IMG/VR virus record: IMGVR_UViG_3300005541_000010 | Location: 825-64,824 of that record | DNA: 64,000 nucleotides | Origin: a virus | Taxonomy: Duplodnaviria > Caudoviricetes | Reading direction: 5' to 3' (one strand) | Part shown: positions 7,387-57,554 of the stretch, in pieces | How positions within the stretch are numbered: the first letter of the stretch is position 1 | How the letters are laid out: each line of letters begins with the position of its first letter | Translations under genes and position numbers: made by a program | Notes under the pieces: generated by a model | What the model was told of the DNA's origin: nothing | What the model saw: only the letters and a program-made list of their open reading frames with translations | The model's database searches: none

Positions 7387-7390
7387 ATTT

Positions 7391-7466: not shown

Positions 7467-7473
7467 CTTTCTC

Positions 7474-7550
7474 CCCTCCATAACTCAACCTGGCTAGAGC
7501 TCCGCCTTTTAAGCGGTAGGGTCGAGGTTCGATGCCTCGTGGAGGGACCA
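7474..7550 (+). tRNA. tRNA-Lys(TTT)
   Basis: CCCTCCA/TGGAGGG, loop CTTTTAA. Confidence 0.92.
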
Positions 7551-38422: not shown

Positions 38423-38451
38423 GTGCCCGCCTTCGCGCGGGCACTTTTTTT
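38423..38451 (+). terminator. Intrinsic terminator
   Basis: GTGCCCGC-CTTCGC-GCGGGCAC followed by T7. Confidence 0.85.
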
Positions 38452-38464
38452 CGTGAGGGCGTAG

Positions 38465-40105: not shown

Positions 40106-42060
40106 AGCCATCCCTGCAGCAAGTCCAACTGCCAACCTCCAACACGACGTTCAACGTCACCGACCCCCTGATTTCCAATGATTGGAAGGGCGCGCTTATG
40201 TGGGGTGGCGCCCCGACGGCAAACGCAACTATCACGGCCGGCATGGGGTTTTGGATCGGGGCCTGCGACTCAGCCGGTGGCAACGTCAATTTTGTGCAAA
40301 ATGCCCAGGACGCGGTGACCGCAGGTCCTGGCGATACTTCTCAGTGGAGCGGGTGCTCCGCGACAACTGCTATCAGGCTTTTGTCCAATACCTTAGGCGC
40401 CGTGAGCCTTTCCGGCGGCTACAACGCCACGCTGCCGAACGGCGTGCAACTGGCGCTGGCCTCGAACGACGGCATCGCCCACGTGGCCAATGTCCTCATG
40501 TTTGCCGGCAGCGACTGGGAATTTCGCGTCAGCAGCACCACCATTTCAGGCTCCAACACGAGTGCCATCGTCACGCACAACCTGACCGGCGTCCCGACCG
40601 GCGTGATGGTGGTGTGGGCCGGCAACAATTCGGTACTGGATGCGGTGGGCCACCACAACTTTTCGATGGCGTTTTTCGATGGCGCCAATTCGGTCGGCAT
40701 GGGGTCGGGGATTGGTTACGAGACCACGCCGACGAAGGTTGCGGCACGGGTCGGCACGGCGGACATGGGGCATGAGATTACCGGCGGCACGTCGGACAAC
40801 ACGACCTACACGATCAGCTCGGTCGGCCCCTCGACACTCACTCTGGCGCGGGGCTCACAGACCGGCGTCGCGACGACTGCGATCATCATTGCATTCCGAA
40901 ACCTGACATCGACAGCCGCGGCCGCCGCCGTTGTCGGCACGACGCCGACCACCACGGGCACGCATGCGGTCAATATCGGCATGCCGGTGGCACCGCAGGT
41001 GTGGCTGAATCTGACGAGCCGGGCCACGGTCACGACGCTGGTCACCAACGACAGCGCCGGGGCCTGGGGCTTCAGTGCCGCGGTCAACAACAACGGCACC
41101 ACGCAGTACGGCGCCAACGTTGGGACGTTTGAAAGCGCCGTCACCACTACGGTCGCCAAGACCCAGTCGAGCAACGCCCAAGCCTCGATGGCGCTCGGGG
41201 ATACGGGCGCGGCGATCTTCACCTCGAGCGTGCAGTCCTGGAATGCGGACGGCGTCTCGGAGAACGTGAGCACGGCCGGGTCCGCCTACGAGCGCATCAG
41301 CCTCGTGTTCGGCGTGCAGCCCACCTCGCAGGCGAGCACCGCCGCTCCCGGCCCCGGCATCTCCCCGGTCGCCCAGGCGCAGTTCCAGTCCTTCCCCTTC
41401 AGCAACGCCAATGCGCTGCAACCGTATTTCCCGCCGCCGACCTCGAATGCGCCGCTTCTGTCACTGCTTTGGGGTCCGGGTAACTCGCCCAATCCGCAAA
41501 CGCAGTTCGAGCGCTTCCCGTTCAGTACGTTGCCGCCGGTTGTCAACATCCAGATCAACGGCCTATTGGTATCCAACTCGACCGCCTTCGGGCCGCTGGG
41601 TCTCGCGGCCTTGCAAGTCGGCCAACCGCTCGGTCAGCCAAGCCCCGGCGTGCAACCGTACGCCGACAGCCAGTTCCGCATGTTTCCCTTTTCGAACAGC
41701 GCGGCGAACACGACTGCCTTCCTGCAAGCCATCCTGCAGTCGAACTCGCTGTTCTACGGCACACTCGTCGGCGCCGGTTCTTTGGGGGCGATCGCTCCGC
41801 CGAACTCGACTTTCTTTGGCTTCCTCACCCCGATCACCCTAGGGCAGATTACGGGACTATGGCAGTCCAACTCCACGGTGTATGCGAACCTCACCGGCAT
41901 CGGCAACATCGCCGGGTTGTCCTTGAGCAACTCGCTCCTGTCGGCACTGAAAATCGGCTCCGGCTTCCAGCCGCTGGTGCCGAATACCCCTGTTCTTGAC
42001 GTGCGTACGGATACCGGGTATGAACCGTGGAGCGTTCGCCCTGGGAAGACCATCGGGTAG
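40102..42060 (+). CDS. Fibre/spike-like structural protein
   Basis: 652 aa, T/S/A/G-rich, repeated QFxxFPFS motifs in the C-terminal part. Confidence 0.55.
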   Translation: MKPSLQQVQLPTSNTTFNVTDPLISNDWKGALMWGGAPTANATITAGMGFWIGACDSAGGNVNFVQNAQDAVTAGPGDTSQWSGCSATTAIRLLSNTLGAVSLSGGYNATLPNGVQLALASNDGIAHVANVLMFAGSDWEFRVSSTTISGSNTSAIVTHNLTGVPTGVMVVWAGNNSVLDAVGHHNFSMAFFDGANSVGMGSGIGYETTPTKVAARVGTADMGHEITGGTSDNTTYTISSVGPSTLTLARGSQTGVATTAIIIAFRNLTSTAAAAAVVGTTPTTTGTHAVNIGMPVAPQVWLNLTSRATVTTLVTNDSAGAWGFSAAVNNNGTTQYGANVGTFESAVTTTVAKTQSSNAQASMALGDTGAAIFTSSVQSWNADGVSENVSTAGSAYERISLVFGVQPTSQASTAAPGPGISPVAQAQFQSFPFSNANALQPYFPPPTSNAPLLSLLWGPGNSPNPQTQFERFPFSTLPPVVNIQINGLLVSNSTAFGPLGLAALQVGQPLGQPSPGVQPYADSQFRMFPFSNSAANTTAFLQAILQSNSLFYGTLVGAGSLGAIAPPNSTFFGFLTPITLGQITGLWQSNSTVYANLTGIGNIAGLSLSNSLLSALKIGSGFQPLVPNTPVLDVRTDTGYEPWSVRPGKTIG

Positions 42061-42071
42061 ACGCGGTAGCT

Positions 42072-42113
42072 GGGCTGCGCGTAACCGCAGCGGCCCTCGT
42101 TCAACCGAGGGCC
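42072..42113 (+). promoter_or_regulatory. 42-nt double-hairpin element, copy 1
   Basis: GCTGCG/CGCAGC plus GGCCCTCG-TTCAAC-CGAGGGCC, covering the SD of 42115. Confidence 0.7.
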
Positions 42114-42114
42114 C

Positions 42115-43503
42115 ATGACACTACTCGTCGGCGACACTAACTTCACCGGATACTCAGGCCCCGGTCCGTCCAATACGGACGGCGCCTACATCGCGGCGTT
42201 GCCGTTCGTCGCCCAAGCCACGGGACTCGCGGTCACGCTGAACGCTTGGATCACGCCCGGCACGGCGTCCACCTTCGTGATGGGCCTCTACGACGGGGTG
42301 CTGCAGCAACTCGCGCTGTCTGCCACGCTCACGCTCCAGACCGCGGGACTGGCCACCTTCCCGATCAGCGCGCCGACGGTCGCCGGGCGCGCCTACCAGA
42401 TCCTCCTGGCGCCGGTCGGCGTGGGCACGTTCCAGTTCGGGGTTGATCTCACAACTCCCACCCAGGCGAACCACGTCGCCAATGGCGCCGCTATCCAGCT
42501 CACCGGACCCGTCCCTACCCCCTATGGCGCGCCGGCCTTCTACGTCGATGGGGACGCGCAGGCGCAGATCATCGCGACCTCCGGCACCATCCAGGACGTT
42601 TTCGACACCGGTAAGATTATCGCGCGCGCCTTCAACCGCTGCCGCGTGCCGTCGGCGAAGATTTCCGACGAACTCGTACACGTGGCCAAGGACGAGCTCT
42701 ACCTGCTCTTGGTGGGCCTCGCGAACGGCCCAACGCCCCTGTGGGCGATCGAGACCGACCTCTTTGGTTTCACGCAAGGTACGGCCGGCGTCGTGATGCC
42801 GTTCTCAACCGTGGACCTGAAGAATGTGAACTACCGGCAGATGTCGGTACTGCAGAGCGGCTCGGCGACTTACGCACCGCCGACGCCCACCCAGGTACCG
42901 ACCATCGGCATCACCTGGTCAGGACCGGCTGGACCCTTCCAAGTGCTGATGAACGGCCAGGCGTTGCTGTCGGAAACGCCGAACGCCTATGCCGGTCAGA
43001 CTACCTTCTACGACCTCGACGGCAGTGTCCCCGCGTCGCAATGGAGCGTGGTGGGCAGCAACATCGGCAGCGTGTCGTTCTTTTCACAGCTCTACGAAAT
43101 CCCGATGTATCCATATTCGCGTGACGAGTGGAGCCAGCTGCCAAATCGCGCCTTCCCCGGCACGCCGCGCCAGTTCTGGTTCGAGCGGTCGATGACGCCA
43201 ACCATTCACCTGTGGCCGGTGCCGCAACTCGCCGACCAGCAAAGCGGGTGCCTGGTGGTCTTCCGCCACCGCCACATCCAGGACGTGGGCACGCTTACGC
43301 AGCGCATCGAAGTCCCGCCGCGCTGGCTGCCGGCCATCATTGACGGACTAGCGGAAAGTCTCGCGCGGCACCCGGAAGCCGACCCCGGCATGCTCGCGGT
43401 CTGTCAGACCTACGCGGCGAAATCCCTCGCAGCCGCCAAGGGCGAGGAACGCGAGAACGCGCCCACCAAGATCGTGCCGCAAATTTGGGGGTACACGCGA
43501 TGA
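42115..43503 (+). CDS. Head-tail adaptor protein with N-terminal extension
   Basis: IIARAFNRC...LANGPTPLWAI...SRDEWSQLPN...GTP.Q.WF.R....LWPVP...EVPPRW..AI..GLA. Confidence 0.7.
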   Translation: MTLLVGDTNFTGYSGPGPSNTDGAYIAALPFVAQATGLAVTLNAWITPGTASTFVMGLYDGVLQQLALSATLTLQTAGLATFPISAPTVAGRAYQILLAPVGVGTFQFGVDLTTPTQANHVANGAAIQLTGPVPTPYGAPAFYVDGDAQAQIIATSGTIQDVFDTGKIIARAFNRCRVPSAKISDELVHVAKDELYLLLVGLANGPTPLWAIETDLFGFTQGTAGVVMPFSTVDLKNVNYRQMSVLQSGSATYAPPTPTQVPTIGITWSGPAGPFQVLMNGQALLSETPNAYAGQTTFYDLDGSVPASQWSVVGSNIGSVSFFSQLYEIPMYPYSRDEWSQLPNRAFPGTPRQFWFERSMTPTIHLWPVPQLADQQSGCLVVFRHRHIQDVGTLTQRIEVPPRWLPAIIDGLAESLARHPEADPGMLAVCQTYAAKSLAAAKGEERENAPTKIVPQIWGYTR

Positions 43504-43811
43504 CGTGGTTCCTCAAGCCGGACGGGCATGCCACCTACGGCATCGGCATCTGTGCGCGCTGCGCGAAGAAGTTCTTCATTGACGAACTCTACGACGATCC
43601 GAACGCGCCGGGCCTGAAGGTGTGCCGTGAGGATATGGACCAGCTCGACCCTTACCGTCTGCCGCCGCGGCCACCCGACCAGATCACGCTGCTATTCACA
43701 CGCCCGGACGTGCCCGTGGATAACCCGAACCCGATCGGGCCTGGCGATCCGGGTTGGCCGCCTGCGGATGCGACCACCACCACCGGCTCAGATACCCTCG
43801 AAGGAACCTAA
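43500..43811 (+). CDS. Conserved small CxxC virion-module protein
   Basis: ICARCAKKF...L..DPNAPGLKVC..D.D..DPY....RPD. Confidence 0.7.
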   Translation: MTWFLKPDGHATYGIGICARCAKKFFIDELYDDPNAPGLKVCREDMDQLDPYRLPPRPPDQITLLFTRPDVPVDNPNPIGPGDPGWPPADATTTTGSDTLEGT

Positions 43812-44752
43812 ATGGCCACCGCAGTCAAGCGCCAATACTCCAAGAGCATCGGCACAACGGCCGTGCAGATCGGTTCGTACGCCGCGCCTTCGGTCACCAC
43901 GGGCGTCTACGTCACCGGCCTCGTCGTGGCCAACACCACCGCCGGCACCGTCTTCGCCTCGGTCGCCATCTACGACGGCACGAACTACGCCTATCTGTGC
44001 CAGAACACGCCCGTGCCGACCGGCGCCAGCATCAACGTCGTCAACAACAACAACCGCCAGGCCCTCAATGCCGGCGACAAGGTGTTCGTGACCTCGAACG
44101 TGGCGCTGTCGCTGGATGTGAACATGAGCGTCGCGGAGATTCAATAATGCTCGGCCCTGACCCGTCTCCAGCCGGCCAAAACGTCTTTGTTGGCACGATC
44201 CTGCTGATCGGCGGCAACGGGCAGATCATCGCCTCACTCTCGTCCGCGGGCCTGCAATTTGGCAACGGCACGGACGTTGCCCCGATCGCCTGGCGCGGGG
44301 AGTGGGACTTCGGCGGCGCGGCCGGTACGCCCGGCCAGGTACTGGTGACGAACGGCCCTGGTCTGACGCCCAACTGGGGGTCCACCGCTACGCTGGCCGA
44401 CAGCGTGAACAACGCCGGCACGGTCAGCACCGGGGTGGTCGCGGCGAACGCCTTCAACAGCAACGTGACGGAAGTCACGCTCGCCGGCTTCATCACGATC
44501 AACATTACCAACATCGCGCTGACCCAAAACACCGCGCAGAACTGCATGCTGGTGCTGATCCAGGACGCCACCGGCAGCCGTCCGTTGCCGACCATCTGGC
44601 TGAACGGCTCCGTGGCCACGGTCAAGTGGGACAACGGCATCACGCCGGTGCTCACGACGACGCCCGGTAAGACTGACATCATTCAGATCACCGCCGTGAA
44701 CATCGCAGGCGTAATCACCCTCTACGGCGCCCAGGTGATTGGAGCCGCGTGA
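43812..44752 (+). CDS. Two structural genes (43812-44147, 44147-44752)
   Basis: Beta-rich; second ends in an LIQDATGSR...W...P.LTTT.GKTDII fibre-type domain. Confidence 0.65.
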
Positions 44753-45717
44753 TGATGCGTTACAAGGCGATGGCGCAGGCCGGCTCGCAGACTTTCAACG
44801 CGAGCGGCAATGCTTTGCTGCCGTGGAACGTCCACAACGTCACTTTCACGGGCGCGGGCGGCCAGGGTAATCCCGGCACTCCAGGCGGCGGTGGCAACCC
44901 TGGCACGGCCGGCCCAGGTGGTGTTGCCGGCAATTCCGGCGGCACGGGTGGTGGTGGTGGCACGGCTGGCAACGGCTCGCCACCGAGTGGTGGCGCGGCG
45001 GGCACGGGTGGCAACCCTGGCACGGCCGGCAGCGCCGGGTCCGGTTTGGCCGGTGGTAGTGGTGGACCGGGCGGCAATCCGAGCGCTGGGAGCGGCGGAG
45101 CAGGGGCGAACGGGAACAACATCGCGCCCGCGAACATCGGCAGCCCCGGCGGCGGTGGTGGCGGCGGCGCGAGTTCACCAGGCGGTAGTGGTGGCGCGGG
45201 CACACCGGGTGCCATCGGCAATTTCGGCAATCCCGGACCGAGCGGCAACCAGGGCAACGCCAGCACGTTCGGCCCGGTGGCAGCCTTCCCCGGTGGCCAC
45301 GGTGGTCCTGGCGGCGGCGCTGGATCGGGTGGCAACGCTGGAGGAGCCGGCAACGCCGGTAACCCCGGCAACCCCGCTGGCGCGGGTGGTGGTGGGGCGG
45401 GCGTGGGGCACAACAGTCCCAGCACCCCAGGCGCAGCCGGGAACCCCGGCAACGTGTCCGGTGCGGTGAACGGCAATGGCGGCACCTCGAACGGCTCGCC
45501 GACTAATCCCGGCAACGCCGGTACACCTGGCTCCGCAGGCAGTGCCGGGAATCCCGGCAACCCCGGCGGTCCCGGTGGTGCGGGCAACCCCGGCACGGCC
45601 GGCAGCCAGCCCATCACCAATGTGAATGCTGCGGTGACGCCGTATACGGTCTATACGGTCGCGATCGGCACGGGAGCGGCGCCTGGTATCGTCAACGCTT
45701 CGTGGGGGCGCCAATGA
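44749..45717 (+). CDS. Glycine-rich (GNPG / G-X-X) fibre or adhesin
   Basis: Long Gly-Asn-Pro-Gly and G-X-X repeats between short globular ends. Confidence 0.75.
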   Translation: MMMRYKAMAQAGSQTFNASGNALLPWNVHNVTFTGAGGQGNPGTPGGGGNPGTAGPGGVAGNSGGTGGGGGTAGNGSPPSGGAAGTGGNPGTAGSAGSGLAGGSGGPGGNPSAGSGGAGANGNNIAPANIGSPGGGGGGGASSPGGSGGAGTPGAIGNFGNPGPSGNQGNASTFGPVAAFPGGHGGPGGGAGSGGNAGGAGNAGNPGNPAGAGGGGAGVGHNSPSTPGAAGNPGNVSGAVNGNGGTSNGSPTNPGNAGTPGSAGSAGNPGNPGGPGGAGNPGTAGSQPITNVNAAVTPYTVYTVAIGTGAAPGIVNASWGRQ

Positions 45718-46049
45718 GCACGCTGGTCAACATCGACAGCGTGTTCCTCTACACCGATGGCGCGCCGGGGGAAGTGGGCGCATCCGCGACCTGCGCGGCC
45801 ATGCGCGCATTTCTTGTCACGCACGCGATCCCGTTTCAGGAGTTGTGGTACGCGGACCCCGCACAGTGGCCATCGGTCCACGCGGCCATCAGTTCCTGGA
45901 CGTTCGCGGGTGGCCCGGTGGCGGTCACACAGTTCCCGTATGTCCACTGGACCGAGCACTACGATGATGGGACGACACAACTGAACATCTGCACTAACCT
46001 CACCGCGCTGCCGACCAGCAACCTAGTGCCGCAGGTGGCCAGTGCGTAG
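45714..46049 (+). CDS. Glutaredoxin/thioredoxin-fold-like protein
   Basis: VFLYT...CAAMRAFL..HAIPFQE...QFPYV; weak resemblance only. Confidence 0.45.
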   Translation: MSTLVNIDSVFLYTDGAPGEVGASATCAAMRAFLVTHAIPFQELWYADPAQWPSVHAAISSWTFAGGPVAVTQFPYVHWTEHYDDGTTQLNICTNLTALPTSNLVPQVASA

Positions 46050-46731
46050 CCCGAAGCTCAAATTTTTGTGCTACGCGCAGGACCGCGGCGTGATCCCGCC
46101 GCCGTACCCGGCGCGTAAATTTGTGCCGGAGTGGTTCAAGGATCTCAAGCCCAAAGTCGGCGGCGACAACAAGCTCGAGAACAGCACGATCAAGCGCTGT
46201 CCGCCGTTCCTGGACGCGCTCACGGCGGGCTGGATCATCCCGCTCGCCGCGGATGTGGAGTTCGTGACCAACGGAGACGCCTCGGGCGTCACGTACAAGT
46301 GGCACTACTACCGCCCGATGGTCGAGAACCATACCGCCGCGCAGGTCGAGGGGCACGAAAGCCTGCCCAAGCCGCCGATGAAGTTCCTGAACTACTGGGC
46401 GATCAAGGCACCGCCCGGCTACAGTGTGCTGTTCGTGCCACCGCTGAACCGGCCGGACCCGCGTTTCCAGTGCCTGAGCGGCTTGGTTGATTGCGACCGT
46501 TACCTCGAGTTCGTGAACTTCCCGTTCTTCTTCCACGAGGCAAACTTCACCGGCGTCATCAAGCAAGGCACCCCATTGGTACAGGCTATTCCTATCCGGC
46601 GCGACGCGCTCTTGAAGGGATACACGGCGGATGTCTTCTGCGCGCGGGAACTGCAGGACCTCGAACTCACGCGTCGCAAGCGCCAGGCGCACGAGAGTCA
46701 CTACCGCGATCACTGCTGGGTACACAAATGA
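46042..46731 (+). CDS. Conserved phage protein often found with 2OG-Fe(II) oxygenases
   Basis: PEWFK...TIKRCPPFLDALTAGW.IP...KF.N.W.IK.PPGYS.LF..P.N...SG.VD.D. Confidence 0.65.
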   Translation: MRSPKLKFLCYAQDRGVIPPPYPARKFVPEWFKDLKPKVGGDNKLENSTIKRCPPFLDALTAGWIIPLAADVEFVTNGDASGVTYKWHYYRPMVENHTAAQVEGHESLPKPPMKFLNYWAIKAPPGYSVLFVPPLNRPDPRFQCLSGLVDCDRYLEFVNFPFFFHEANFTGVIKQGTPLVQAIPIRRDALLKGYTADVFCARELQDLELTRRKRQAHESHYRDHCWVHK

Positions 46732-47321
46732 GCGCTTATCAGTTCGCCCCGGCCCCCGATCTTTCCACCAACGAGCAGACCTATGCGACCTGGGAGAACG
46801 GCTTCACGGACGAGGAGCTGAACCGCATTGTCACACTCGGCGAAAGCCTCACGGCGAATCTGGCGGTCGTGAACGATGCGAAGACTGTGGACCTCGCGCT
46901 GCGCAAGGCGCGTACGGCCTGGATCGCCCTCACCGACAACAGCCAGTGGCTGTACGACCGGCTGACCTTCATCGCCCGCAAGCTCAACGGGCAGTTCTTC
47001 GACTTCGACCTGTATGGGTTTGTCGAGGATTTCCAGTTCACGATCTACGGCAACGACCGGGATCACTACACCTGGCACATGGACAAGGGGGTGTCCAACG
47101 CTCCACCGCGCAAGCTCTCGCTCGTGCTACAGCTATCAGACCCGGCGACCTACGAAGGCGGCGACCTCGAACTCATGTACGGTGCCACGATCACCACGGC
47201 CGCCAAGCAGCGCGGGCTCGTCTACGCCTTCCCGAGCTGGATCATGCACCGCGTCACGCCGGTGACCCGCGGCGTGCGCAAAACGCTGGTGGTGTGGATT
47301 TCCGGGCCGAAGTTCAAGTGA
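46728..47321 (+). CDS. 2OG-Fe(II) oxygenase, prolyl-4-hydroxylase-like
   Basis: HYTWHMD, RKLSLVLQLS, YEGGDL, FPSW..HRVTPVTRGVRKTLVVW. Confidence 0.92.
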   Translation: MSAYQFAPAPDLSTNEQTYATWENGFTDEELNRIVTLGESLTANLAVVNDAKTVDLALRKARTAWIALTDNSQWLYDRLTFIARKLNGQFFDFDLYGFVEDFQFTIYGNDRDHYTWHMDKGVSNAPPRKLSLVLQLSDPATYEGGDLELMYGATITTAAKQRGLVYAFPSWIMHRVTPVTRGVRKTLVVWISGPKFK

Positions 47322-47328
47322 GACGCTG

Positions 47329-48009
47329 ATGGCTACGGCAATGACCTTCAACACGCTGCAAACCGACCTGCAGGCGTACCTCGAGCGCGGGCAGGTCACG
47401 GACACCACCGTGCTGAACCAGCTGCCCCGGCTGATCAACAACGCCGAGCGGCGCATCTCGCGGGAACTGAAGATCCTCGGTTTTCAGCGCCCGATGAATA
47501 ACAGCTTCACCGCCGGCACCCCGATCATGCCCAAGCCCGATCGTTGGCGCGAAACCATCAGCTTCAACTACGGCAACTTCAACCCCGTCACCGGCATGTA
47601 CACGGTGCGTACGCCGATTTTCCAGCGCGCCTACGAGTTCGTGCGTGCCTATAACCCCGACGACAGCGTGACCGACAAGCCGCGCTTCTACGCCGATTAC
47701 GACTATAACAACTGGGTCGTGGCGCCGACCCCGGACCAGGCGTACCCGTTCGAGGTGCTGTACTGGGAAATGCCAGCGTTGCTCGACGCAGTGAACACGC
47801 AGAACTGGATTTCGATTTACGCGCCGGAGGTGCTCCTGTACTCCGCGCTCCTCGAGTGTGCGCCGTTCCTCAAGGACGACCAACGTATCCAGACCTGGGA
47901 AGGCGCCTTCACGACCGGCATGAAAGCGCTATCGAACGAGAACATTCAAGACATGGTGACGCGCAGCGCGCAGACGCATCAGCCCGTCGCCGGAGGCGCC
48001 GCAGCATGA
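47329..48009 (+). CDS. Tail adaptor/connector protein
   Basis: TFNTLQTDLQAYLER...INNAERRISREL, PRFYA.YD...V.PTPD..Y..E..Y, LLYSALLE. Confidence 0.75.
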   Translation: MATAMTFNTLQTDLQAYLERGQVTDTTVLNQLPRLINNAERRISRELKILGFQRPMNNSFTAGTPIMPKPDRWRETISFNYGNFNPVTGMYTVRTPIFQRAYEFVRAYNPDDSVTDKPRFYADYDYNNWVVAPTPDQAYPFEVLYWEMPALLDAVNTQNWISIYAPEVLLYSALLECAPFLKDDQRIQTWEGAFTTGMKALSNENIQDMVTRSAQTHQPVAGGAAA

Positions 48010-49247
48010 GTGGCCAGGGTTACGTATCCCCGCTGAATGCCGGTCTGACGGTGCTCCCGTCGCCGACCACGTTCCAGCAATACTCCGTCCAGGCCGGCGC
48101 AACGGTGCAGCTCGCGTGGCCGGTCGATAACGTCCCCGGCAATTCCACCGTTCTCGCGCTGTTGAACAACCTCAACCCGTTGGGCGCCGGCTGTATCGTG
48201 CAGATGCCCAACGCGCAGAACACCTCACTCGGTGAGAAGGGCCTGATTTTCAACTCCGGGTCGTCGCCCTTCAACGTCATCGACAGCGGCGGCAATGCAA
48301 TCGTCACCATCGCCAGCGGTGCCTGCTACTACCTGGCCCTCACGAACAATCTGACCCCCGGCGGGTCCTGGCTCGCCTTCCAGTTCGGGGCGGCGACGAC
48401 GAGCGCCAATGCCGCAGCCTTGGCCGGTGCGGGACTCGCCGCGCTGGGTCCGATGATCCAGCAGATCATGACCGTGACCACGCTGTCCACCAACTACAAC
48501 GTGGCGGCCACCGATCGCGACAACCTCCTGAACTGGGCCGGGGGCGCCGGCACTTACACGCTCCCCCTGGCGGCGAGCGTCGGCAACAACTTCTACATCC
48601 AGGTGCGCGACTCCGGTACCGGTTCGCTCGTCGTCGCCACCCAGGGCGCGGACCTGATCAATGGCGCGGCGAGTGTGACCTTCAACATCGCCGACTCCGC
48701 CTTTGTGGTCACCGACGGCGTGGGCTGGTTCACGATCGGCTTGGGCACCATCCAGACGAACATTTTCAACTTCCAGGTCGTATCACTGGCCGGACAGTCC
48801 GGCACCTACGTGCTGCCGGCGAATCAGCAAGGCAAGGTCGCCTACCGCTTCACCGGGGCACTCGCCGGTAACACCAACATCCAGGTTCCGACCACCATCC
48901 AGCAATACTGGGTGGACAATGAAACCACTGGCGGCTTCACGCTCGGCATCGGCACCGCTGCGCAGATCGGGGGCGCCACGCAGTTCACGATCACGAACGC
49001 CGCACGCTTCATCCTTTATTGCGACGCTTCGAATGTCCTGAACGCCAGCACCAGCGGCATCGGCGTGCCGATCAGCATTGCGCAGGGTGGGACGGCCGCG
49101 ACCACCGCATCCCAGGCGCTCACGAACCTGGGGGGGACTTCCCTTGGTGTGGCGCTCTTTGAGGCGACGAGCGTGGCCTCCGCACAGGCATCCTTGGCCG
49201 TCCTGTCGGCGTCCGACGCCTGGGCGATCACGTTGGGGGTGGGATGA
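48006..49247 (+). CDS. Tail fibre / needle-like structural protein
   Basis: 413 aa beta-rich, ending in ISIAQGGTAATTA...NLG fibre motif. Confidence 0.65.
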   Translation: MSGQGYVSPLNAGLTVLPSPTTFQQYSVQAGATVQLAWPVDNVPGNSTVLALLNNLNPLGAGCIVQMPNAQNTSLGEKGLIFNSGSSPFNVIDSGGNAIVTIASGACYYLALTNNLTPGGSWLAFQFGAATTSANAAALAGAGLAALGPMIQQIMTVTTLSTNYNVAATDRDNLLNWAGGAGTYTLPLAASVGNNFYIQVRDSGTGSLVVATQGADLINGAASVTFNIADSAFVVTDGVGWFTIGLGTIQTNIFNFQVVSLAGQSGTYVLPANQQGKVAYRFTGALAGNTNIQVPTTIQQYWVDNETTGGFTLGIGTAAQIGGATQFTITNAARFILYCDASNVLNASTSGIGVPISIAQGGTAATTASQALTNLGGTSLGVALFEATSVASAQASLAVLSASDAWAITLGVG

Positions 49248-50794
49248 GCTTTACCCCCTTTGCCCTGCAGTTCGAACCGGGCATTCAACGCGACAGCACG
49301 CTGTACTCAGCGCAGGCGTACACGGATGCACTCTGGTGTCGGTTCCAGTACGGACGCCCGCGCAAGATCGGCGGCTACAAGGCCCTCACGCCGAACCTGA
49401 CTGGCCTCTCACGCGCGCTCTTGGCACAGACGCAAAGCGGGCTGAGTTATGTGCATTCCGGCTTCGCCGCCGGCATCGAGTCAGTGCAGATCGACCAGTA
49501 CGGTACCGCGAGCATCCCGGCCGAGCGGACACCAGCTGGCTTCACGACCGACCCCAACAATGTCTGGCAGCTCGACACCTACTACGACATCGTGTCCGGG
49601 CAGCAGCAACTGCTGGCTTTCGTGGCGCCGGCCCTGTCCGACATCGCCTATGGAACGGCCACCGGGAAACTCTACTCGGGGCCCATCTATGCGACCACCG
49701 CGCTGGTGCTCGACACGGATGCCGCGATCGCCACGGACGCAACGGGCGGTGTGTGTGTGCTGCCGCCCTACACCATTCTGTACGGCTCAAATGGCCTCTT
49801 TCAGTGGTCGTTCCCGGCCAAGCCCTTGGTCTTCACGGATGATGGGTCGGGGAGCGCCGGAGCGGCGCGTGTGACCTCGCAGAAGATCGTGCGCGTGCTG
49901 CCGTTGCGCGGCGGCGGTGGCTTTACGCCGTCGGCGCTGGCGTGGTCACTGGATTCCTTGATCCGCGTGTACTTCATCGGCGCACCGCAGGGCTTCGCCT
50001 TCGACACGCTGAGCACGGACTCGAGCATCCTGTCGCACAACGCGGTGGTGGAGTCCGACGGGACCTTCTATTGGGCCGGCGTGGATCGCTTCTTGATGTT
50101 CAACGGCGTGATGCGCGAGCTCCCCAACACGCGCAACCTCAACTGGTTCTTCGACAATCTGAACCGACAGTACGCACAAAAGGTGTTCGCACTCAAGAAC
50201 TCGCGCTACGGGGAAATCTGGTTCTGTGCGCCGCTTTTTGGCGCCACCGAACCTAGCCACGCCGCGATCTTTAACTACCGTGAAAACACCTGGTACGACA
50301 CTCAGCTTCCCAACGGCGGGCGCTCGTTCGGCATCCAGAACGTCATCGCGGGCGGCAACTTCATGTCTGGTACCGCGCTGTACCAGGGCAGCACTTACCG
50401 CCTATGGCAGCACGAGACGGGCGTGGACGAGGTGGACGTGGGCAACACCAACGCCGTTCACAGTTACCACACCACCCCGGTGATCTCCACCGAGTCCTTC
50501 CAGATGCCGCAGGACCATAACCTGCATATCGACACGATCATCCCGGACATGGTGCAGACGGGCGCGATGACCCTCACCGCCAACGTACGTGGCAATGCGC
50601 GCGCACAATTCGCGCCCTTCACGAATGCCACCTTCCAGGCGCCCCCGGCCACCGGCAGCGCCCAGCAGGTACCGGTTCATGCCTCGGCGCGCCAGATTAC
50701 GCTCACGCTCGACAGTAACGTGCGCGGGGGCACTTACCAGGCCGGCAAACACATCGGTTACATTCAACCCGACCAGGGGCGTCGAACTCAGTAA
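49244..50794 (+). CDS. Tail hub / head-closure protein (P22 gp10-like beta propeller)
   Basis: PGIQRDST...W.RFQYGRPRKIGGY, FAF..LS.D..ILS...VVE.DG..YW.G...F.MFNG, YGEIWF. Confidence 0.8.
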   Translation: MSFTPFALQFEPGIQRDSTLYSAQAYTDALWCRFQYGRPRKIGGYKALTPNLTGLSRALLAQTQSGLSYVHSGFAAGIESVQIDQYGTASIPAERTPAGFTTDPNNVWQLDTYYDIVSGQQQLLAFVAPALSDIAYGTATGKLYSGPIYATTALVLDTDAAIATDATGGVCVLPPYTILYGSNGLFQWSFPAKPLVFTDDGSGSAGAARVTSQKIVRVLPLRGGGGFTPSALAWSLDSLIRVYFIGAPQGFAFDTLSTDSSILSHNAVVESDGTFYWAGVDRFLMFNGVMRELPNTRNLNWFFDNLNRQYAQKVFALKNSRYGEIWFCAPLFGATEPSHAAIFNYRENTWYDTQLPNGGRSFGIQNVIAGGNFMSGTALYQGSTYRLWQHETGVDEVDVGNTNAVHSYHTTPVISTESFQMPQDHNLHIDTIIPDMVQTGAMTLTANVRGNARAQFAPFTNATFQAPPATGSAQQVPVHASARQITLTLDSNVRGGTYQAGKHIGYIQPDQGRRTQ

Positions 50795-53700
50795 TGACCG
50801 CACTCGTCACAGCCGGCAACACCGCGGGCGCACTGCGCATGGTGTACGTCAATTCCGGGCCGTCTACCGCTGTCGTGAATACCGCGGCAGAGACCGTCTT
50901 TGACCAATATTTTACCTACCCCCTGCAATCGCAACGAGCGACGCTACCGACGACGCTTATCAGGCTGCGGACTTTCGGGATCTTTAGTACCGGACTTTTG
51001 AACCTGGGACTCACGTTGCGCCTACGGTGGGGTGGTGTCGCGGGCACGCTTCTGTGTAGCTCCGGGTCCTTATCACTCCAGGCATCAGCCTCCAATATTG
51101 GTTGGTCGGCCGAGGCACAAATCCTCATGCAGGCAGTCGGGCCGATTGGTGTCATCGAGGGGCAAGGTTACGCGGCCTTCGCGGCCGGAGCGTTGGCAAT
51201 CGCCGCACTACCGATGGCCAACGCGGGAACTTTTACTGTGGACACTACCGTCGCTTCTGATCTTGTGCTTACCGCGCAATGGGGAACAGCGGCCGCTGCA
51301 AACAGTATCCAATTACGAACCTGTGTCGTCGAAGTGGACGGCCCATAGAGGACTTCCAATGGCAATCCTTACCTACGCCGATAGCTACGCGGAATTGCAA
51401 GCCTTGTTCACGGCCACCTTCTCCGGTGCCTGGAACACCGTGGCGCAAAATGCCGCGGCCCCAGCCACGAACCTCTACGTGTCCTTGCACAATGCCGATC
51501 CTGGCCCGACCGGCTCGCAGACCACCTCAGAGACCGCGTACACGAACTACGCGCGCATCGCGGTGGCACGCACCACCGGCGGCTGGACAGTCACGCAGGG
51601 ATCGGGTACGACTTTTTCGAACGTCGTCAACGCCGCGACGATCAGTTTCGCCGCGTGCGGCGCGACTGGTGACACGCTCACCAACTGGGGCGTAGGTCTA
51701 TCATCCTCCGGGGCCGGTACTCTGCTCGCCTTCGGCCCCTTGGGTCCGGTAGCCGGTCCGGCGATCCCCTTCACCTGTACCAACGCCTCCCCTGGCGTCC
51801 TGACCGTATACGGCTACACCCCGGCGGCCAACGATCGGGTATGTGTATGGCAGTTGCCGGGCACAGAAGGATTGCCGACTGGACTCACGGAAGGCACCAC
51901 GTACTATGTCGGCACGGCCCCTGGCGGCCAGACGCTGACGCTTTCGACCACCACCGCGAACGGTAACCCGGTTAACACGACCTCCACCGGGTCGGGCATC
52001 CTCTACAAGCAATCTCCACTTATCGTGTCCAACGGCATCACGCCGAGCTTCGCGGCCGGGCAGTTCAGCATTCAGAAGGCATAGGAGCGCTTCGTCATGG
52101 CACAAGGTTTTTGGCAAACACTCGACACCCTGCAGCAGCCCGGCACGGCGATCGCGTCTACGAGCACACGTACCTCGATGACCGTGGGTTCCACACAGGG
52201 GCGTTTCACGCTGCCGGCGAACTCCATCAAGCAACTCGGGGACCAGCTCCTGCTTAAGGCGTCCGGGATAATCACTACCGTGGTCACCACCCCCGGTACG
52301 CTAACGCTTGACTTCGCGATGGCGACCGCGGCGAACGTGAGCACGGGCGCGATGACGCTTAACACGGTCGCGCAGACCAACACGCCCTGGCACTTGGAAA
52401 TCCTGATGACTGCCTTCGTGGTCGGCACGTCCGCGCAGTTCCGCTACACCGGCTACTGGCTGTCGCCGGCTTCGGTGAACGTGGCGTTGGGCGCGACCGG
52501 ACCCGGACCGGGCGGCCAGATCATCCCGTACTCCGGTACGGCGACGGGAGCATCGACCTTGGGCGTGGCGTTCGATTCGACAGTTTCGCAACTTACGGAC
52601 CTGTACTCGACATTCAGCGTGACGACCGCGAACTCAATCCAGCTCCTGGCGTACAGCCTCACGCTGATGACCGCGACCGGCTTCTAAGCCGGCCGGGCAC
52701 ACGCCCGGAGGTTTAAGTGGGCATCGCGTTCAAGTCCACGATCCCGTTCTGGGCGGCGACTTCGCCGGCCGCGAGCGCGGCGTTCACCCCTAATCCCGGC
52801 GACTTCTTCTTCGTCGTCGGCGTTACCGGCACTACCGGCACCGCCACGATCACGCAGGCGGCGAGCACCGGGCCGCCGATGCAGCAGGTATCCGGCGGTG
52901 GGCTGCCGAACTTCAACGACGGCTTCGCCGATACCTGGAGCCTGTGGTATCAGGCATCCGCGGCCGGCTCCTCGACCACCGTCACGCTCACCGCAAGCGG
53001 CGACACGATGCAGGGCATCGGCCTGGACTACGCCGGGGTCGCGGCGCTTAAAAATTCCTCGATCCTCGTCAAGGCCGCCCCCGGTACCGGAGCCGGGGCA
53101 CTCGTCGGCAGTGCGATCACCGTCAAGCCCGGCGACCTGCTCATCGTCGTCGTCGCGGACATTTCCGCGTCCGCCGGCACGATCACCGCCGCCAACGGCA
53201 GTCCGACCACACGCCTGTCCGGTACTGCCGCCGCTGGTCCGCTGACCAACTACGCGATCTTCGAATACGCCGGGACCGGGGCGGCTTTCACGCCCACCTT
53301 CACGGTCTCCGGGGGGTCCACGGATGACTATGTAGTCCTGCAATTCGCGCTGGTCGCCGCCTCAAGTTCGGCTCCTGGTCCGGCCGCGGGACGGCCGACG
53401 CTACGCCTGGGCACGCCGAACAGCCGTCTGCGCGGCAAGACCGAGACCAATAATGTCGGGCAGTTGGTCGCGCTCGCCGCGTCGATCACGGTCGCGACCG
53501 CCACGCTCATCGGCATCCCCGCGCAAGGCACCCAGTCCGTGCAACGGCCGGGGTTGCGGCTCACCACCCCGCTCAGTCTCTTGCGTGGTGTATTGGCCAC
53601 GAGCCAAGTCACCGGGAGCACCGGAACGCTTGCCGCGCTCGGCGCGAGTTCCACCGTCGGGTCCGCGGCGCTCACCGGCGCAGGTTCTTTGGACGCCTTG

Positions 53701-54414
53701 GCAGTCAGTTCAACTGCCGGTGAATCGACACTTACGGGCGTTGGTGCGCTCGCCGCGCTCGGTGCCTCGAGCACGGTCGGTGATGGAGGGGCCGCCGGCA
53801 GCGGTGCGCTCACGACCATCGTCATCACGGCGACCGCTGCCGAGGGAAGTATCACCGGCAGCGGCGCACTCGGGGCACTCGCGGTTAGCGACACGACGGG
53901 CGCTGCGGCCGCTGCCGGCGCCGGAACCTTGGCGACACTCGCGGCAACCGCGACTACGGGTGAGGGAGCACTGAGCGGTGCGGGAATGCTCAGCGCGCTG
54001 GCGACCAGCAGTACCGCAGGACCGGCCGCCGCGGCCGGTAGCGGGTCCCTGGGCACGCTGGCGATCTCGGCGATGGTCGGACACGGGCCACTGGCCACCG
54101 GCAACCCAGGGGCGATGTCGGCGCTGGGTATCTCATCGACTGCCTACGCCAAGCACAAGGCCGCCAAGCGCAAGGGGCGCTGCTGTTACCTGGTATCGCC
54201 AGCTGGGAAGACTCAGCAGGAGTGGACGGAGGCATTCGTGTACGCGAACTTGAGCGTGCTCGCACTCCCGCAACCTGGGCCTTTCGAGCAGTGGGCGGCG
54301 CAGGTGATACAGGAACCGCAACTGCAGCTGCTGCAACTGCCGACACCGGGGACGAACTGGGAGACGTGGGCCGAAGAACTCAACGCGGCGCTTGCGACCA
54401 CGGCGAGCTTCTAA
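50794..54414 (+). CDS. Fibre/adsorption cassette B: 50794-51348, 51359-52084, 52097-52687, 52717-54414
   Basis: 51359 gene has LYVSLHNADPG (paralogue of 37089); 52097 paralogue of 37797; last gene has A/G/S/T repeats and a Trp-rich C-terminal domain. Confidence 0.65.
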
Positions 54415-54483
54415 AGCCTTGACGGATGGGTCGCTAACGGTTATGAACGCGTAATCGTCGGCCCCGTGGGCGGACGTTCCTTT

Positions 54484-54525
54484 GGGCTGCGCCACCGCGC
54501 AGCGGCCCTCACTCAACTGAGGGCC
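54484..54525 (+). promoter_or_regulatory. 42-nt double-hairpin element, copy 2
   Basis: GCTGCG/CGCAGC plus GGCCCTCA-CTCAAC-TGAGGGCC, covering the SD of the TTG start at 54528. Confidence 0.7.
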
Positions 54526-54527: not shown

Positions 54528-57500
54528 TTGCCAGACCTGAGCCAAAGCCTCGCATACCTGCAAGCCCTCCAGAGTCTTGCGGGCAGCGTGCCGACGGCGC
54601 CGCCAGGGACTCAGAGTTCCGGTAGCTCTGCTGCCCGTCCATTCGCGCAACCGGGCGCGACGTATGGATTCAGCGGCAGTAACACCCCCGGTGGCAGTTC
54701 CTCTGGTGGTTCGGCGTACACGCCAGCCGGCACCGCCAGCAGTCCGCTTGCCCAGCTCCTGACCGGTGGCACCGCCAGCGCCGCGCTCGCACCACTCATC
54801 GCCGGTCTCGCGAGCAGTCAACCGCAAACACAACCGCAATCCTCCGCACCCAACACACAGATGTTGGGTGGTGGTTTGAACACTCTAGGCCAGTACGCGC
54901 CGACACTCTCGGGTCTCACCGGCGACGCCGGTAACGCGCTCGGCATCGTGGGCGGACTGGAGGCCGGCGGCGCGCGCGGCGATCTTGGTGCCGCGGCAAA
55001 CGCAGCCAAGCTCGCCGGCAACACCACCGGGACATCGAGCCTCACCGGCATCGGCAATGACCTCGGCTCCGCGCTCGGCCTGTACGGTGGCCTGCAAACC
55101 GGCGGCGTGGGCGGGTACGGCCAGGCGTTGGGCAGCGGCTTGAACCTGGCCGGCCAACTCGGTTCGCAGACTGGCGCGCTCTCCGGCGCCACCTCTGGCG
55201 CACTGAGTTCGGCCGGCGGTGAAATTGCTGCCCCGCTTGCCGTCTACAACGCCGTCAATAACTGGCAGTCCGGGAAGACCGGCTCGGACGCCCTGAACGG
55301 CGCTGAAGCCGGGGCTGCGGTCGGGTCGATCGTGCCGGTCATCGGCACCGGCATCGGCGCGCTCGCGGGTGGCGCGATTGGCGCGCTGTCCAGCGCACTG
55401 GGCCCTGGCGCAACCGATCCTGAGCAAGGCACGTGGGGGCAGTTCCTGAACGCCTACGACACGGGCGGTTCCAAGGCGACACAAGCCTACCTCGCAGCGC
55501 ACCCGGAACTACAGGGCGCCAACATATCGGCGTTCAAGAACGCGCACCTGGGTGGCGGCAACGGACCGAGCCCGTATGCGGCCCCTGGTGTCGCCGCCCA
55601 ACAGCAAGGCGAACAAACCGCCGCGACGCAAGGCGCACAGAACGCCGTGTCCGGTGGCAGCGGCGCCGGGGATTTCCAGGCGCTCGCGGGCCTGTTCGAC
55701 ATGCGCTCGAGCGACTTGCCCTTCTACCAGCAGTACGGCCGCATGGGTGAAGGCAAGTTCACCACCGACATGGCGAACCAGATCGACAGTGCGATCAAGG
55801 GCGGGAAGATTTCCGCCAACGCGACGCCGCAGCAAATTTATAGCCAGGTCGTCAACCCCTGGATCAGCGGCATGAACAACAGCGCTTCCAGCACCGGCAA
55901 GGGCTGGGCGGCGCAGGGCACCGGGGCCAGCGGCGGCGACATCGAAGGACAGATGCAGGCACCGGTGCAGCAACTCCTGACGAACCTCATCAGCAATTAC
56001 CAGCAGGGGCAGCCGTTCTACACGGTCGGCGGCTCGCAAGTACAGCTCCCCGCGTACGCGGCCAAAGGTGGATCAATGGACAGGAAGCGGCGCGACATGC
56101 GCGAAATCTACAAGGGCAGCTTCAAGGAGCGCCGCTTCGATAGCGGTGGCAGCGCGTACAACAACTACGCCGGCTACATCTCAAACAACGTCTCACCCGG
56201 CTCGTTGGACTACTTCTCGCCCGCGCTCGGTGGCAACACCACCGACCCTTACCAGCTCGCCAACGGCGCGAACTTGCCGACCAATCCGAATCTCGGTGTA
56301 CCCGGCACCGGACTGGGGGCCACAGGCGAAGGCACCGCGGGACTCACCCCGCAGCAACTGCAGGAGCTTGAGGGTGGGGCAACGGGGGCCGCCAATTCCG
56401 TCGGCCCTGGCGTCAATTCCGGCGCGCTGTCAGGACTACTCGGTAGCGGCGGACTAGGAAATGCCTGGAGTGGACTGAGCACCGGGCAACAGGTCGGCAC
56501 GCTGGGCGCGCTGCTGGCCGGTCTCGGCGCGATCCAGAACAACGGCCAGAACATGACGCAGCAGTACAAGCCCGCGCCGCCGCCGATGTTCGCCAACACC
56601 GGGCCGCGCGGCACCGCGCAAGGTGCTCCGGCTGGCGCGAATATGTACGGCAATTTCTCCACGCAGCCGCGCTCGCGCGTCAACCCCGGCATCACGAACT
56701 ACGCCACCTACGGCCAGGGGCCAGCGGCGATGTTTTACAGCCCGAGCCCCTCGCAGGCACCGGCCGCCGCCGGCGCGCTCAACCAGGCGTCCGCGATCCC
56801 GGCCGCCGCTCCCGCAGCACCACAAGGACAGTCGCTGCAGGCAGTCCTCGCGCAGCTCGCGCAGCAACCGGGCGTGGCGCGCGGAGTTGGGACGCAGAAC
56901 CCGAATGCCTACGCGATGGCGCGCGGCGGGGATGTTGGCCATTACTTTGTCGGCGGTTATGTAGGGCAGCCGCGCCCACCGATGATGGGTCAGCAACCGA
57001 TGGCACAACCCGGACGCATGCAGCAACCGCAAATGCCGTCGCGGCCAATACAACAGCCGTCGCCGATGGGGCCTCAGATGCCACTGCGGCAAGGGCTCCC
57101 GCCGCCGGTAGCCGCGAATCCGGGGGAGATGCCGGGAGGACAGTCAATGGCATCGCGACTCGGAGGCCCAGGTGTGCCAGGAGGAGCACCGCCGATGCCG
57201 CAACAGCCTCTGCGGCCATTTGACGGCAATCCTGTACGACCCATGTTGGCGCATGGCGGGGAGCTCGGCCGCGATCATCCAAGAGGCCACCGCGCGCAGG
57301 GACTGCTGGACGGACCAGGGGACGGCACATCGGACGACATTGTGCCGGCGGCCTTGAGTCAGGGCGAATACGTAATTCCCGCTCATGTTGTGGCTGCCCT
57401 CGGCAACGGCTCCAACAAGGCCGGCGCTGCGCGCCTCGATGAGCTGCAGAAGAACGTGCGTATGAAGACGGGTCAGGCGATGGCTCGCAACCAACATCCA

Positions 57501-57554
57501 ACGGGCAAGAACCGCGCGAAAAGCCCGGCCGCCTACATGCGGGGTGGCAAATGA
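54528..57554 (+). CDS. Ejection / internal virion protein
   Basis: 1008 aa G/A/Q-rich; several xxGG motifs; C-terminal GPGDGTSDDIVPAALSQGEYVIPA module. Confidence 0.7.
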   Translation: MPDLSQSLAYLQALQSLAGSVPTAPPGTQSSGSSAARPFAQPGATYGFSGSNTPGGSSSGGSAYTPAGTASSPLAQLLTGGTASAALAPLIAGLASSQPQTQPQSSAPNTQMLGGGLNTLGQYAPTLSGLTGDAGNALGIVGGLEAGGARGDLGAAANAAKLAGNTTGTSSLTGIGNDLGSALGLYGGLQTGGVGGYGQALGSGLNLAGQLGSQTGALSGATSGALSSAGGEIAAPLAVYNAVNNWQSGKTGSDALNGAEAGAAVGSIVPVIGTGIGALAGGAIGALSSALGPGATDPEQGTWGQFLNAYDTGGSKATQAYLAAHPELQGANISAFKNAHLGGGNGPSPYAAPGVAAQQQGEQTAATQGAQNAVSGGSGAGDFQALAGLFDMRSSDLPFYQQYGRMGEGKFTTDMANQIDSAIKGGKISANATPQQIYSQVVNPWISGMNNSASSTGKGWAAQGTGASGGDIEGQMQAPVQQLLTNLISNYQQGQPFYTVGGSQVQLPAYAAKGGSMDRKRRDMREIYKGSFKERRFDSGGSAYNNYAGYISNNVSPGSLDYFSPALGGNTTDPYQLANGANLPTNPNLGVPGTGLGATGEGTAGLTPQQLQELEGGATGAANSVGPGVNSGALSGLLGSGGLGNAWSGLSTGQQVGTLGALLAGLGAIQNNGQNMTQQYKPAPPPMFANTGPRGTAQGAPAGANMYGNFSTQPRSRVNPGITNYATYGQGPAAMFYSPSPSQAPAAAGALNQASAIPAAAPAAPQGQSLQAVLAQLAQQPGVARGVGTQNPNAYAMARGGDVGHYFVGGYVGQPRPPMMGQQPMAQPGRMQQPQMPSRPIQQPSPMGPQMPLRQGLPPPVAANPGEMPGGQSMASRLGGPGVPGGAPPMPQQPLRPFDGNPVRPMLAHGGELGRDHPRGHRAQGLLDGPGDGTSDDIVPAALSQGEYVIPAHVVAALGNGSNKAGAARLDELQKNVRMKTGQAMARNQHPTGKNRAKSPAAYMRGGK

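Follow-up and report, generated by a model that had tools for sequence, protein, structure and literature searches.

This locus raises the question of why a phage genome whose late genes mostly overlap or abut should twice make room for the same 42-nt double hairpin, each time immediately before the start codon of a putative virion protein gene. The stretch analysed here, hereafter called the window, comprises 64,000 nucleotides (bases 825–64824) of the 64,824-bp IMG/VR viral contig IMGVR_UViG_3300005541_000010, which is 63% G+C, is rated complete by CheckV and derives from an uncultured podovirus with tail genes of the GP4/SU10 type. From about 24.8 kb on, all late genes lie on the + strand and are so tightly packed that the two gaps holding the element are unusual. 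We favour, with moderate confidence, the view that the element would act as a promoter-proximal leader RNA in which a hairpin masks the Shine–Dalgarno (SD) sequence and imposes low or gated initiation on the first gene of a late module.

Two copies of a double hairpin over late gene starts

Each copy consists of two hairpins that abut directly, with no spacer between them, and the SD of the following gene lies within the second hairpin. The copies and the genes behind them, all on the + strand, are listed here.

42072–42113, + strand: double hairpin copy 1, located by pattern and fold; covariance-model score 53.6 bits
42074–42079 paired with 42086–42091, + strand: stem 1 of copy 1 (hairpin 1, 42074–42091)
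42092–42099 paired with 42106–42113, + strand: stem 2 of copy 1 (hairpin 2, 42092–42113)
42107–42110, + strand: SD GAGG in hairpin 2 of copy 1, with the ATG at 42115, 1 nt past hairpin 2
42115–43503, + strand: gene for a 462-aa adaptor-like virion protein with an ATG start, its N-terminus conserved from residue 2 among 16 homologues
54484–54525, + strand: double hairpin copy 2, located by pattern and fold; covariance-model score 57.8 bits
54486–54492 paired with 54497–54503, + strand: stem 1 of copy 2 (hairpin 1, 54486–54503)
54504–54511 paired with 54518–54525, + strand: stem 2 of copy 2 (hairpin 2, 54504–54525)
54519–54522, + strand: SD GAGG in hairpin 2 of copy 2, with the TTG at 54528
54528–57554, + strand: gene for a 1008-aa putative ejection/internal virion protein with a TTG start, assigned by synteny with relatives

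The predicted minimum free energies are −30 kcal/mol for copy 1 and −33 kcal/mol for copy 2 (z-scores of −2.5 and −4.0), and GAGG lies 4 nt from the ATG at 42115 and 5 nt from the TTG at 54528. The preliminary description of this DNA had placed a 42-nt double hairpin at exactly these two positions, and the recurrence is not expected by chance. Specifically, a search with the full pattern, allowing up to three mismatches, returned two sites in the window, both of them the known copies, and none in 100 shuffles; a filter-free covariance-model scan of the window found the same two sites only. The compensatory pair that had been reported at the top of stem 2, G-C in copy 1 (42099/42106) and A-T in copy 2 (54511/54518), is real, as is the placement of the SD of the next gene inside stem 2, where GAGG occupies the 3′ arm in both copies.

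The leaders of both copies are among the most stable of the 46 initiation regions in the window; a ranking of SD accessibility over a fixed window did not discriminate them. A generic scan for abutting hairpins found about ten per strand in the window, a number equal to that in shuffles. Thus, the architecture alone is not significant, and it is the position and the conservation of the element that are. Partial copies and antisense partners of the 12-mer GCAGCGGCCCTC are no more frequent in the window than chance, and a phage antisense RNA partner within the genome was rejected because matches to this 12-mer stay at the chance level. The claim that loop 2 keeps the sequence YTCAAC holds for both window copies but not beyond them, as the loops of relatives are unrelated, and the common loop is a local feature, probably the result of a recent duplication.

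A third abutting pair, made of 6-bp hairpins, occupies 52677–52708 (CCGGCT-TCTA-AGCCGG, then CCGGGC-ACAC-GCCCGG). It has the same architecture as the 42-nt element and an unrelated sequence, lies just 5′ of the AGG and GTG (52717) of a 565-aa fibre-module protein, and carries the upstream stop codon in loop 1.

Conservation, covariation and SD geometry among relatives

The 462-aa protein encoded behind copy 1 has 15 homologues (44–71% identity), all of them metagenomic, whose contigs were examined. In clade A (47–71% identity) the element lies directly 5′ of the orthologous start codon and follows the consensus GGGCUGCS, loop, SGCAGC, then GGCCCUC..., loop, ...GAGGGCC. A covariance model was built from eight sequences, and only instances outside this training set were counted as new. 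Five such instances were found in related contigs, with E values from 1e-10 to 4e-3.

L037, 47 bits: 5′ of the orthologue of the 462-aa protein gene
L035, 38 bits: 5′ of the orthologue of the 462-aa protein gene
L019A, 21 bits: 5′ of the orthologue of the 462-aa protein gene
L017, 5318–5373, 37 bits: second copy, before a Gp80-type fibre gene
L019, 130–187, 29 bits: second copy, before a Gp80-type fibre gene

Clade B (43–45% identity) carries a diverged version in which hairpin 1 is different and hairpin 2 reads GCCUCA.../...UGAGGC with the SD in its 3′ arm, and a further variant precedes the fibre gene in this clade. The clade-A model, which was the single model used, found no match in two complete clade-B genomes because hairpin 1 is too diverged there. 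In every relative with upstream sequence, the element lies 0–10 nt before the confirmed start codon. Genomes carry two copies each, and three gene contexts occur: the adaptor-like gene in all phages, a Gp80-type fibre gene in several and the ejection gene in the window phage only. Judged by sequence comparison, conservation of the element extends over about a dozen related soil phages, all of them uncultured. The covariance-model search that the preliminary description had proposed as a check therefore does yield further homologues, and both stems covary among them.

The 13 distinct sequences place 90.7% of alignment cells in standard pairs, and five pairs are changed on both sides. The covariation score was reached by none of 500 shuffles and 3′ partners slid by 1–3 columns pair in only 36–72% of cases, with the caveat that these figures are generous, as the model was used to fit the alignment and the common descent of the sequences makes the shuffle statistics overstate independence. 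Compensatory changes are plain in the raw sequences: the top pair of stem 1 is either G-C or C-G, and the extension of stem 2 takes the forms G-C, A-U, AC-GU, AG-CU and AAAU-AUUU. Furthermore, G·U pairs number eight against two A·C, which favours an RNA of the + strand. With both stems covarying in a + strand RNA and the SD inside a stem, the claim of a conserved structured element over a ribosome-binding site stands.

What stays the same in every clade and gene context is hairpin 2, in which the SD is paired with CCCUC. GAGG lies in its 3′ arm, 4–11 nt from the start codon, in all 17 tabulated instances, and the L017 copy keeps CCCUC opposite GGGGG through a U·G pair. The SD is thus paired at a functional spacing from a verified start codon, in a helix kept by compensatory change, as is characteristic of an SD-sequestering leader hairpin. 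Because the core of stem 2 is the complement of the SD, its conservation needs no extra explanation. The start codons behind the element are GTG or TTG in 15 of 19 contexts.

The loops vary from 2 to 13 nt and have no conserved sequence, which speaks against recognition of the loops by a protein and against a double-stranded DNA operator of fixed spacing. Across 12 clade-A lineages, in which the flanking proteins are only 47–71% identical, neither the sequence of stem 1 nor the unpaired GG(G) in front of it varies. A pyrimidine-rich tract of 12 nt precedes the element (0.69 versus 0.50 for background).

Rfam 15 run over the whole window at the gathering threshold identified tRNAs only, and scans of 3-kb loci around the copies, with E values up to 10, gave nothing on the + strand at either element. 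Matches in these locus scans were noise at E > 1, including a − strand Bp1_684 match (E = 1.4) that overlaps copy 2. Both regions had no blastn match in 50,697 phage records. The exact loop-2 pattern has no match in IMG/VR because loop 2 is unconserved, and a looser stem pattern gave seven matches there, two of them real. No relatives of the ejection protein were found in IMG/VR, and none of the 462-aa protein among 185,579 prokaryote genomes, which thus offer no clue to a prophage or host. A host repeat of the REP/BIME type was rejected: the same prokaryote genomes gave 20 single pattern matches, scoring at most 30 bits with the model and mostly in open frames, which we judged to be due to chance or coding. 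The RNA motif family is therefore new, as first claimed, being absent from Rfam, from the phage records and, chance matches aside, from the prokaryote genomes. The class of mechanism to which it would belong, the SD-sequestering leader hairpin, is already known.

A proposed leader RNA and the genes it precedes

Promoter-like sequences, unnoticed in the preliminary description, lie upstream of the element, extend the repeat beyond its 42 nt and point to a leader cassette rather than a free-standing operator.

41996–42024, + strand: promoter-like TTGACG-N17-TATGAA (distal type), in the last codons of the open reading frame (ORF) 40102–42060
42032–42064, + strand: predicted leader hairpin 0 of copy 1, from RNAfold of the inferred leader
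54419–54447, + strand: promoter-like TTGACG-N17-TATGAA, in a non-coding spacer
54456–54476, + strand: predicted leader hairpin 0 of copy 2, from RNAfold of the inferred leader

The exact sequence TTGACG-N17-TATGAA occurs only twice in the window, 47 nt upstream of copy 1 and 36 nt upstream of copy 2, and the first of these motifs has a sigma70-like score (9.5) that is reached by 0.5% of background windows. This distal motif, with a spacer of 16 or 17 nt, is also present 5′ of the element in L012, L020 and L035. Loci that lack it have a TAnAnT hexamer (TAGAGT, TAAAGT, TAGACT, TAGAAT or TACAGT) 10–16 nt before the element, in some cases with a fair −35 hexamer (TTGACG-17-TAAGAC in L027, TTAACA-17-TAGTAT in L019 and TCGACG-18-TACAGT at the clade-B fibre copies). 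Of 19 instances, 6 have an upstream sigma70-like score of at least 8.5, a value reached by 2.7% of 80-nt windows drawn at random from their contigs. Promoter and element are 11 to 50 nt apart. Where the motif is non-coding (copy 2, L012, L020 and L027), its hexamers are kept and the spacer between them is not. Three relatives (L012, L027 and L037) show the order upstream gene, U-tract terminator, promoter-like motif, element, which is the layout of a fresh transcription unit.

In leaders of the distal-promoter type, hairpin 0 is predicted to follow the inferred transcription start by 1–3 nt. Copy 2, L012, L020 and L035 all retain an equivalent stem, despite a 10-nt loop deletion in copy 2 and L012, and folding models suggest that hairpin 0 is conserved as a part of the leader.

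From these features we infer a transcription start, an effect on translation and an effect on transcript stability. A clade of uncultured podophages of the GP4/SU10-like kind may carry a cis-acting leader RNA at the head of their late (virion) gene modules, and the element would form its core. Host RNA polymerase would probably start at a sigma70-like promoter 10–50 nt 5′ of the element. No gene for an RNA polymerase was seen in the genome. The leader would fold into two directly abutting GC-rich hairpins, the second of which would pair the SD GAGG(G) with an anti-SD-like CCCUC, so that the ribosome could load on the first gene of the module only once this helix opens. SD masking and the preponderance of GTG and TTG among the start codons should together hold initiation at a low level or make it dependent on a helper, for which ribosomal protein S1 or standby binding on the upstream pyrimidine-rich stretch, or some other factor, would be candidates. 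Hairpin 1, or hairpin 0 in distal-promoter leaders, would lie at the 5′ end or close to it and probably shields the transcript as well. Initiation is known to fall steeply with the stability of helices that cover the SD, and S1 and upstream standby sites can offset this effect (PMC3936740, PMC3858243). By analogy, the roughly eight GC-rich pairs over the SD should strongly limit loading of the 30S subunit.

That the site serves as an initiation region is indicated by contig L012, in which an ORF for a 142-aa HNH homing endonuclease (3746–4174, with the CHRCDNPPCLNPSHL motif) lies between the element and the adaptor-like gene. This ORF sits exactly on the SD and ATG of the element and uses both, and a GTGA overlap couples its translation to that of the displaced gene.

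Several observations weigh against the leader model. Initiation would be all but abolished by an SD-covering hairpin of about −15 kcal/mol, yet the virion genes concerned are essential, so something must open hairpin 2. The transcription starts are guesses from sequence. In copy 1 and in L035, the distal motif doubles as coding sequence for LDVR..GYEPW, the conserved C-terminus of the fibre-like protein upstream, and part of the conservation of the motif is therefore due to coding; the proximal hexamer lacks a convincing −35 partner in several relatives and overlaps the stop codon of the upstream gene at many loci. The shared descent of the sequences makes the shuffle statistics generous. Finally, stem 1 and the unpaired GG(G) are conserved beyond structural need, which the leader model does not account for and which may point to a partner that reads a specific sequence, as in the Mu mom leader. 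A phage-encoded RNA polymerase that reads a ‘hexamer-N11-GGGC’ geometry was rejected as an explanation, as there is no gene resembling an RNA polymerase and the 867-aa ORF is in the portal position.

The genes identified in this genome include those for a large terminase, an HK97-type capsid protein, an Erf recombinase and a tRNA array, as well as a Gp80-type fibre, as in Ralstonia phage GP4, and an SU10-type adaptor.

47329–48009: canonical short adaptor

The product of the gene at 42115 had been described as an adaptor, and ‘adaptor-like’ is a fair term for it. Its predicted fold combines an N-terminal beta-sandwich with a C-terminal adaptor-like fold (mean predicted local distance difference test score 76.5), and Foldseek matches the C-terminal half to portal–tail adaptor chains of GP4, VP1 and cyanophage A4 (probability 1.0; template modelling score, TM-score, by target 0.56–0.69). 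However, the Pfam SU10_adaptor match is sub-threshold (22.4 bits versus a cut-off of 27), and the canonical adaptor is the protein encoded at 47329–48009. On the strength of the modelled fold, the 462-aa protein would be a second, enlarged adaptor paralogue beside it. For the gene at 54528, the TTG start is backed by an alignment in which the N-terminus matches that of ATG-started orthologues from L020 and L017 (the orthologues without an element use ATG), whereas the label ‘ejection protein’ comes from gene order only. A PDB sequence search with both downstream proteins gave no match.

Other features of the window lie apart from the element. A free-standing homing endonuclease of the window phage is encoded at 21847–22338 (HNH_3 with NUMOD4 and helix–turn–helix motifs; Pfam E 5e-16), and a protein with a Cpn10 (GroES-like) co-chaperonin domain, also present in relatives, is encoded at 30279–30761 between the portal and the scaffold/capsid genes. 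The tRNA array (4700–7547) contains 13 tRNAs at the Rfam gathering score, where the first reading had claimed 36, and two pairs of direct repeats (58–69 nt, 71–74% identical) lie in and around this region at 7604–7672/7796–7864 and 6197–6254/8031–8088. The ORF at the right end (60331–64000), which continues beyond the window, encodes a giant polyvalent protein with Zeta-toxin and ddrB-ParB domains, and at the left end a RadC/JAB ORF (3–755) is open and is not in frame with the right-end ORF across the contig ends.

Alternative explanations and known systems

The invariance of stem 1 invites a more specific version of the leader model, in which a late phage protein would bind hairpin 1 and the invariant junction GCAGC-GGCCCUC, melt hairpin 2 and so turn on translation of tail and ejection genes at the proper time. 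In the leader of Mu mom, a translation-inhibition structure is melted when Com binds the adjacent hairpin (PMC6483171), and the element resembles that leader in having a short hairpin that adjoins an inhibitory one. Stem 1 and the junction are also more constant across the 12 lineages than folding needs. However, the loops, which are the usual protein contact, are unconserved, and hairpin 1 is different in clade B. The sole zinc-ribbon ORF (22320–22649, 109 aa, C-x2-C-x20-C-x2-C), at the border of the early and late regions, has sub-threshold generic Pfam matches only, lacks a match to the Com/Ogr family and is absent from two complete clade-B genomes, and it finds no support as a Com-like partner. 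With unconserved loops and no Com-like partner found, the earlier suggestion that a phage protein recognizes the element is not supported, and we regard a protein-gated switch of this kind as unlikely. The accompanying suggestion that virion stoichiometry is set in this way is conjecture. We give no more credence to the broader scenario of a trans-gated switch of this soil podophage clade, in which a phage or host factor would read the hairpin-1 stem and GCAGC-GGCCCUC, open the SD hairpin and time or dose the tail, fibre and ejection proteins, with a portable cassette of promoter, switch and start codon letting new fibre modules join the late programme.

Could the cassette instead serve mainly as a homology patch for the exchange and duplication of fibre and tail modules, for which the PeSL elements of T4-type phages provide a precedent (PMC2839356, PMC4122927)? 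The copies do lie at module junctions, and the window phage has an extra fibre module with copy 2 at its end.

50794–54414, + strand: second fibre module, identified by tblastn synteny, with a Pfam Gp80 match for 51032–52084

This module is paralogous to 37089–38354 and is inserted between a 516-aa gene and the ejection gene, with copy 2 at its 3′ end; relatives couple the ejection gene directly to the preceding gene, without the element. Within the paralogous modules, 37089–37787 and 51032–52084 are both Gp80-like, 37797–38354 and 52097–52687 are about 40% identical via shared relatives, and the C-terminal 75–120 aa or so of the 565-aa protein (52717–54414) corresponds to a stand-alone gene of 85–120 aa in relatives.

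Downstream of the element the genes are conserved, and upstream of it they differ from phage to phage (230 to 769 aa). Those 5′ of the adaptor-like gene differ in both number and length, and only the last 190 residues or so of the adjacent fibre-like protein are common. The element site is rearranged in L020 and L012. Specifically, L020 carries at about 2735–2965, 115 nt past the real gene end (..RPAKTIG*), a duplicated and frameshifted relic of the upstream C-terminus (..WTVRPAKTIG*) with TTGACG-N17-TATGAA, which looks like the scar of a cassette replacement. Homing endonuclease genes also cluster at the element site, and GIY-YIG genes follow the adaptor-like gene in L012, L036 and L037.

However, a recombination seam needs no covarying stems, no SD inside a stem and no fixed distance to a start codon. 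There are only two copies per genome, and the order of promoter then hairpins is the reverse of that in PeSL. The preliminary description had offered a recombination boundary for fibre cassettes as an alternative; the location at module junctions and the rearrangements in L020 and L012 agree with it, but similarity to relatives breaks 100–250 nt upstream of the element, inside the fibre gene, in all but L037. We consider a seam as the main function decidedly unlikely, and any such use is likely to be a by-product.

An RNA processing site, a 3′-end protection site or a factor-dependent terminator, at which the late transcript would be cut or ended and the upstream fibre mRNA stabilized, could be sought in two stable GC-rich hairpins that occupy rare intergenic gaps of a packed late operon. 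An intrinsic terminator combines a GC-rich hairpin, which the element has, with a following U-tract, which is absent in all 17 instances, and the terminator scan did not call the element. Canonical U-tract terminators are used in this genome (38432–38462) and in L012, L027 and L037, and in these three relatives the real terminator sits upstream of the element. The stems, at 6–11 bp, are short for RNase III, and the geometry of SD and start codon would be left unexplained. This reading is improbable and less likely than the leader model. For comparison, the real terminator at 38432–38462 consists of GTGCCCGC-CTTCGC-GCGGGCAC followed by TTTTTTT and lies between the first fibre module and the gene at 38465.

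The put RNAs of phage HK022 consist of two stem-loops spanning about 65–70 nt, occur twice per genome downstream of promoters and have no link to an SD. The element resembles them loosely, with two adjacent stem-loops just downstream of promoter-like sequences and two copies per genome, both placed at the start of a long run of co-directional genes, and could by this likeness be a processive antitermination RNA that modifies RNA polymerase for read-through of the late operon. However, it is only about 42 nt long, terminator-like sites are not in excess downstream (11 against an expectation of 12.6), put lacks a strict coupling to SD and start codon, and the upstream promoter is weak or doubtful in many relatives. 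No put model had a match in the Rfam scans of the window and loci. A lambda-type nut (boxB) site does not fit either, as both loops vary freely and no conserved block resembling boxA was seen. We judge antitermination to be very improbable, and again less likely than the leader model. Least probable of all, and likewise behind the leader model, is a double-stranded DNA operator whose inverted repeats bind a dimeric repressor or activator, because, although two perfect palindromes stand beside a promoter-like motif, their half-site spacing varies from 2 to 13 bp, G·U pairs outnumber A·C pairs by eight to two and the element keeps its position relative to the start codon, not to the promoter (11 to 50 nt).

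Little is known about how tailed phages that depend on host RNA polymerase set the ratios of tail, fibre and ejection proteins in one late operon. The motif is compact, is well backed by covariation and stands in front of three different virion genes. It offers a clonable test object of 45–130 nt for translational dosing in high-GC phages. It could also aid annotation, as it marks true start codons, many of them TTG or GTG, and module borders in contigs of uncultured GP4-like phages. The class of mechanism is familiar, and no surprising biochemistry is implied.

Among known systems, the Mu mom translation-inhibition structure is similar in that a late phage gene has its translation start signals buried in a hairpin, with a short hairpin directly beside it. 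The element differs from it in sharing no sequence similarity, in having unconserved loops and no Com-like protein found, and in being reused before several genes in many phages. PeSL of T4-type phages, in which a terminator stem-loop is followed by an early promoter and which occur in many copies in hyperplastic early regions (PMC2839356, PMC4122927), are likewise small composites of promoter and stem-loop that are repeated in a genome, lie at the borders of variable modules and bear signs of shuffling. Unlike PeSL, the element places a promoter before two hairpins that carry the SD, has no U-tract and occurs in the late structural region, twice per genome.

Two further precedents come from hairpins near ribosome-binding sites. 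The ompA 5′ untranslated region has two hairpins, the second of them beside the ribosome-binding site with the SD single-stranded, and the T7 gene 10 leader has a 5′ hairpin. As in these stabilizers, a hairpin lies at or near the inferred 5′ end of the leader and a second one by the ribosome-binding site. Unlike in ompA, the SD of the element is predicted to be fully paired, and the transcription start is an inferred one. In the T4 genes e (lysozyme) and soc, a hairpin hides the ribosome-binding site in early transcripts, and a late promoter inside the hairpin yields an open transcript. Although the candidate promoters of the element all lie upstream of both hairpins, it shares with T4 e and soc an SD-sequestering hairpin for the timing or amount of a late protein.

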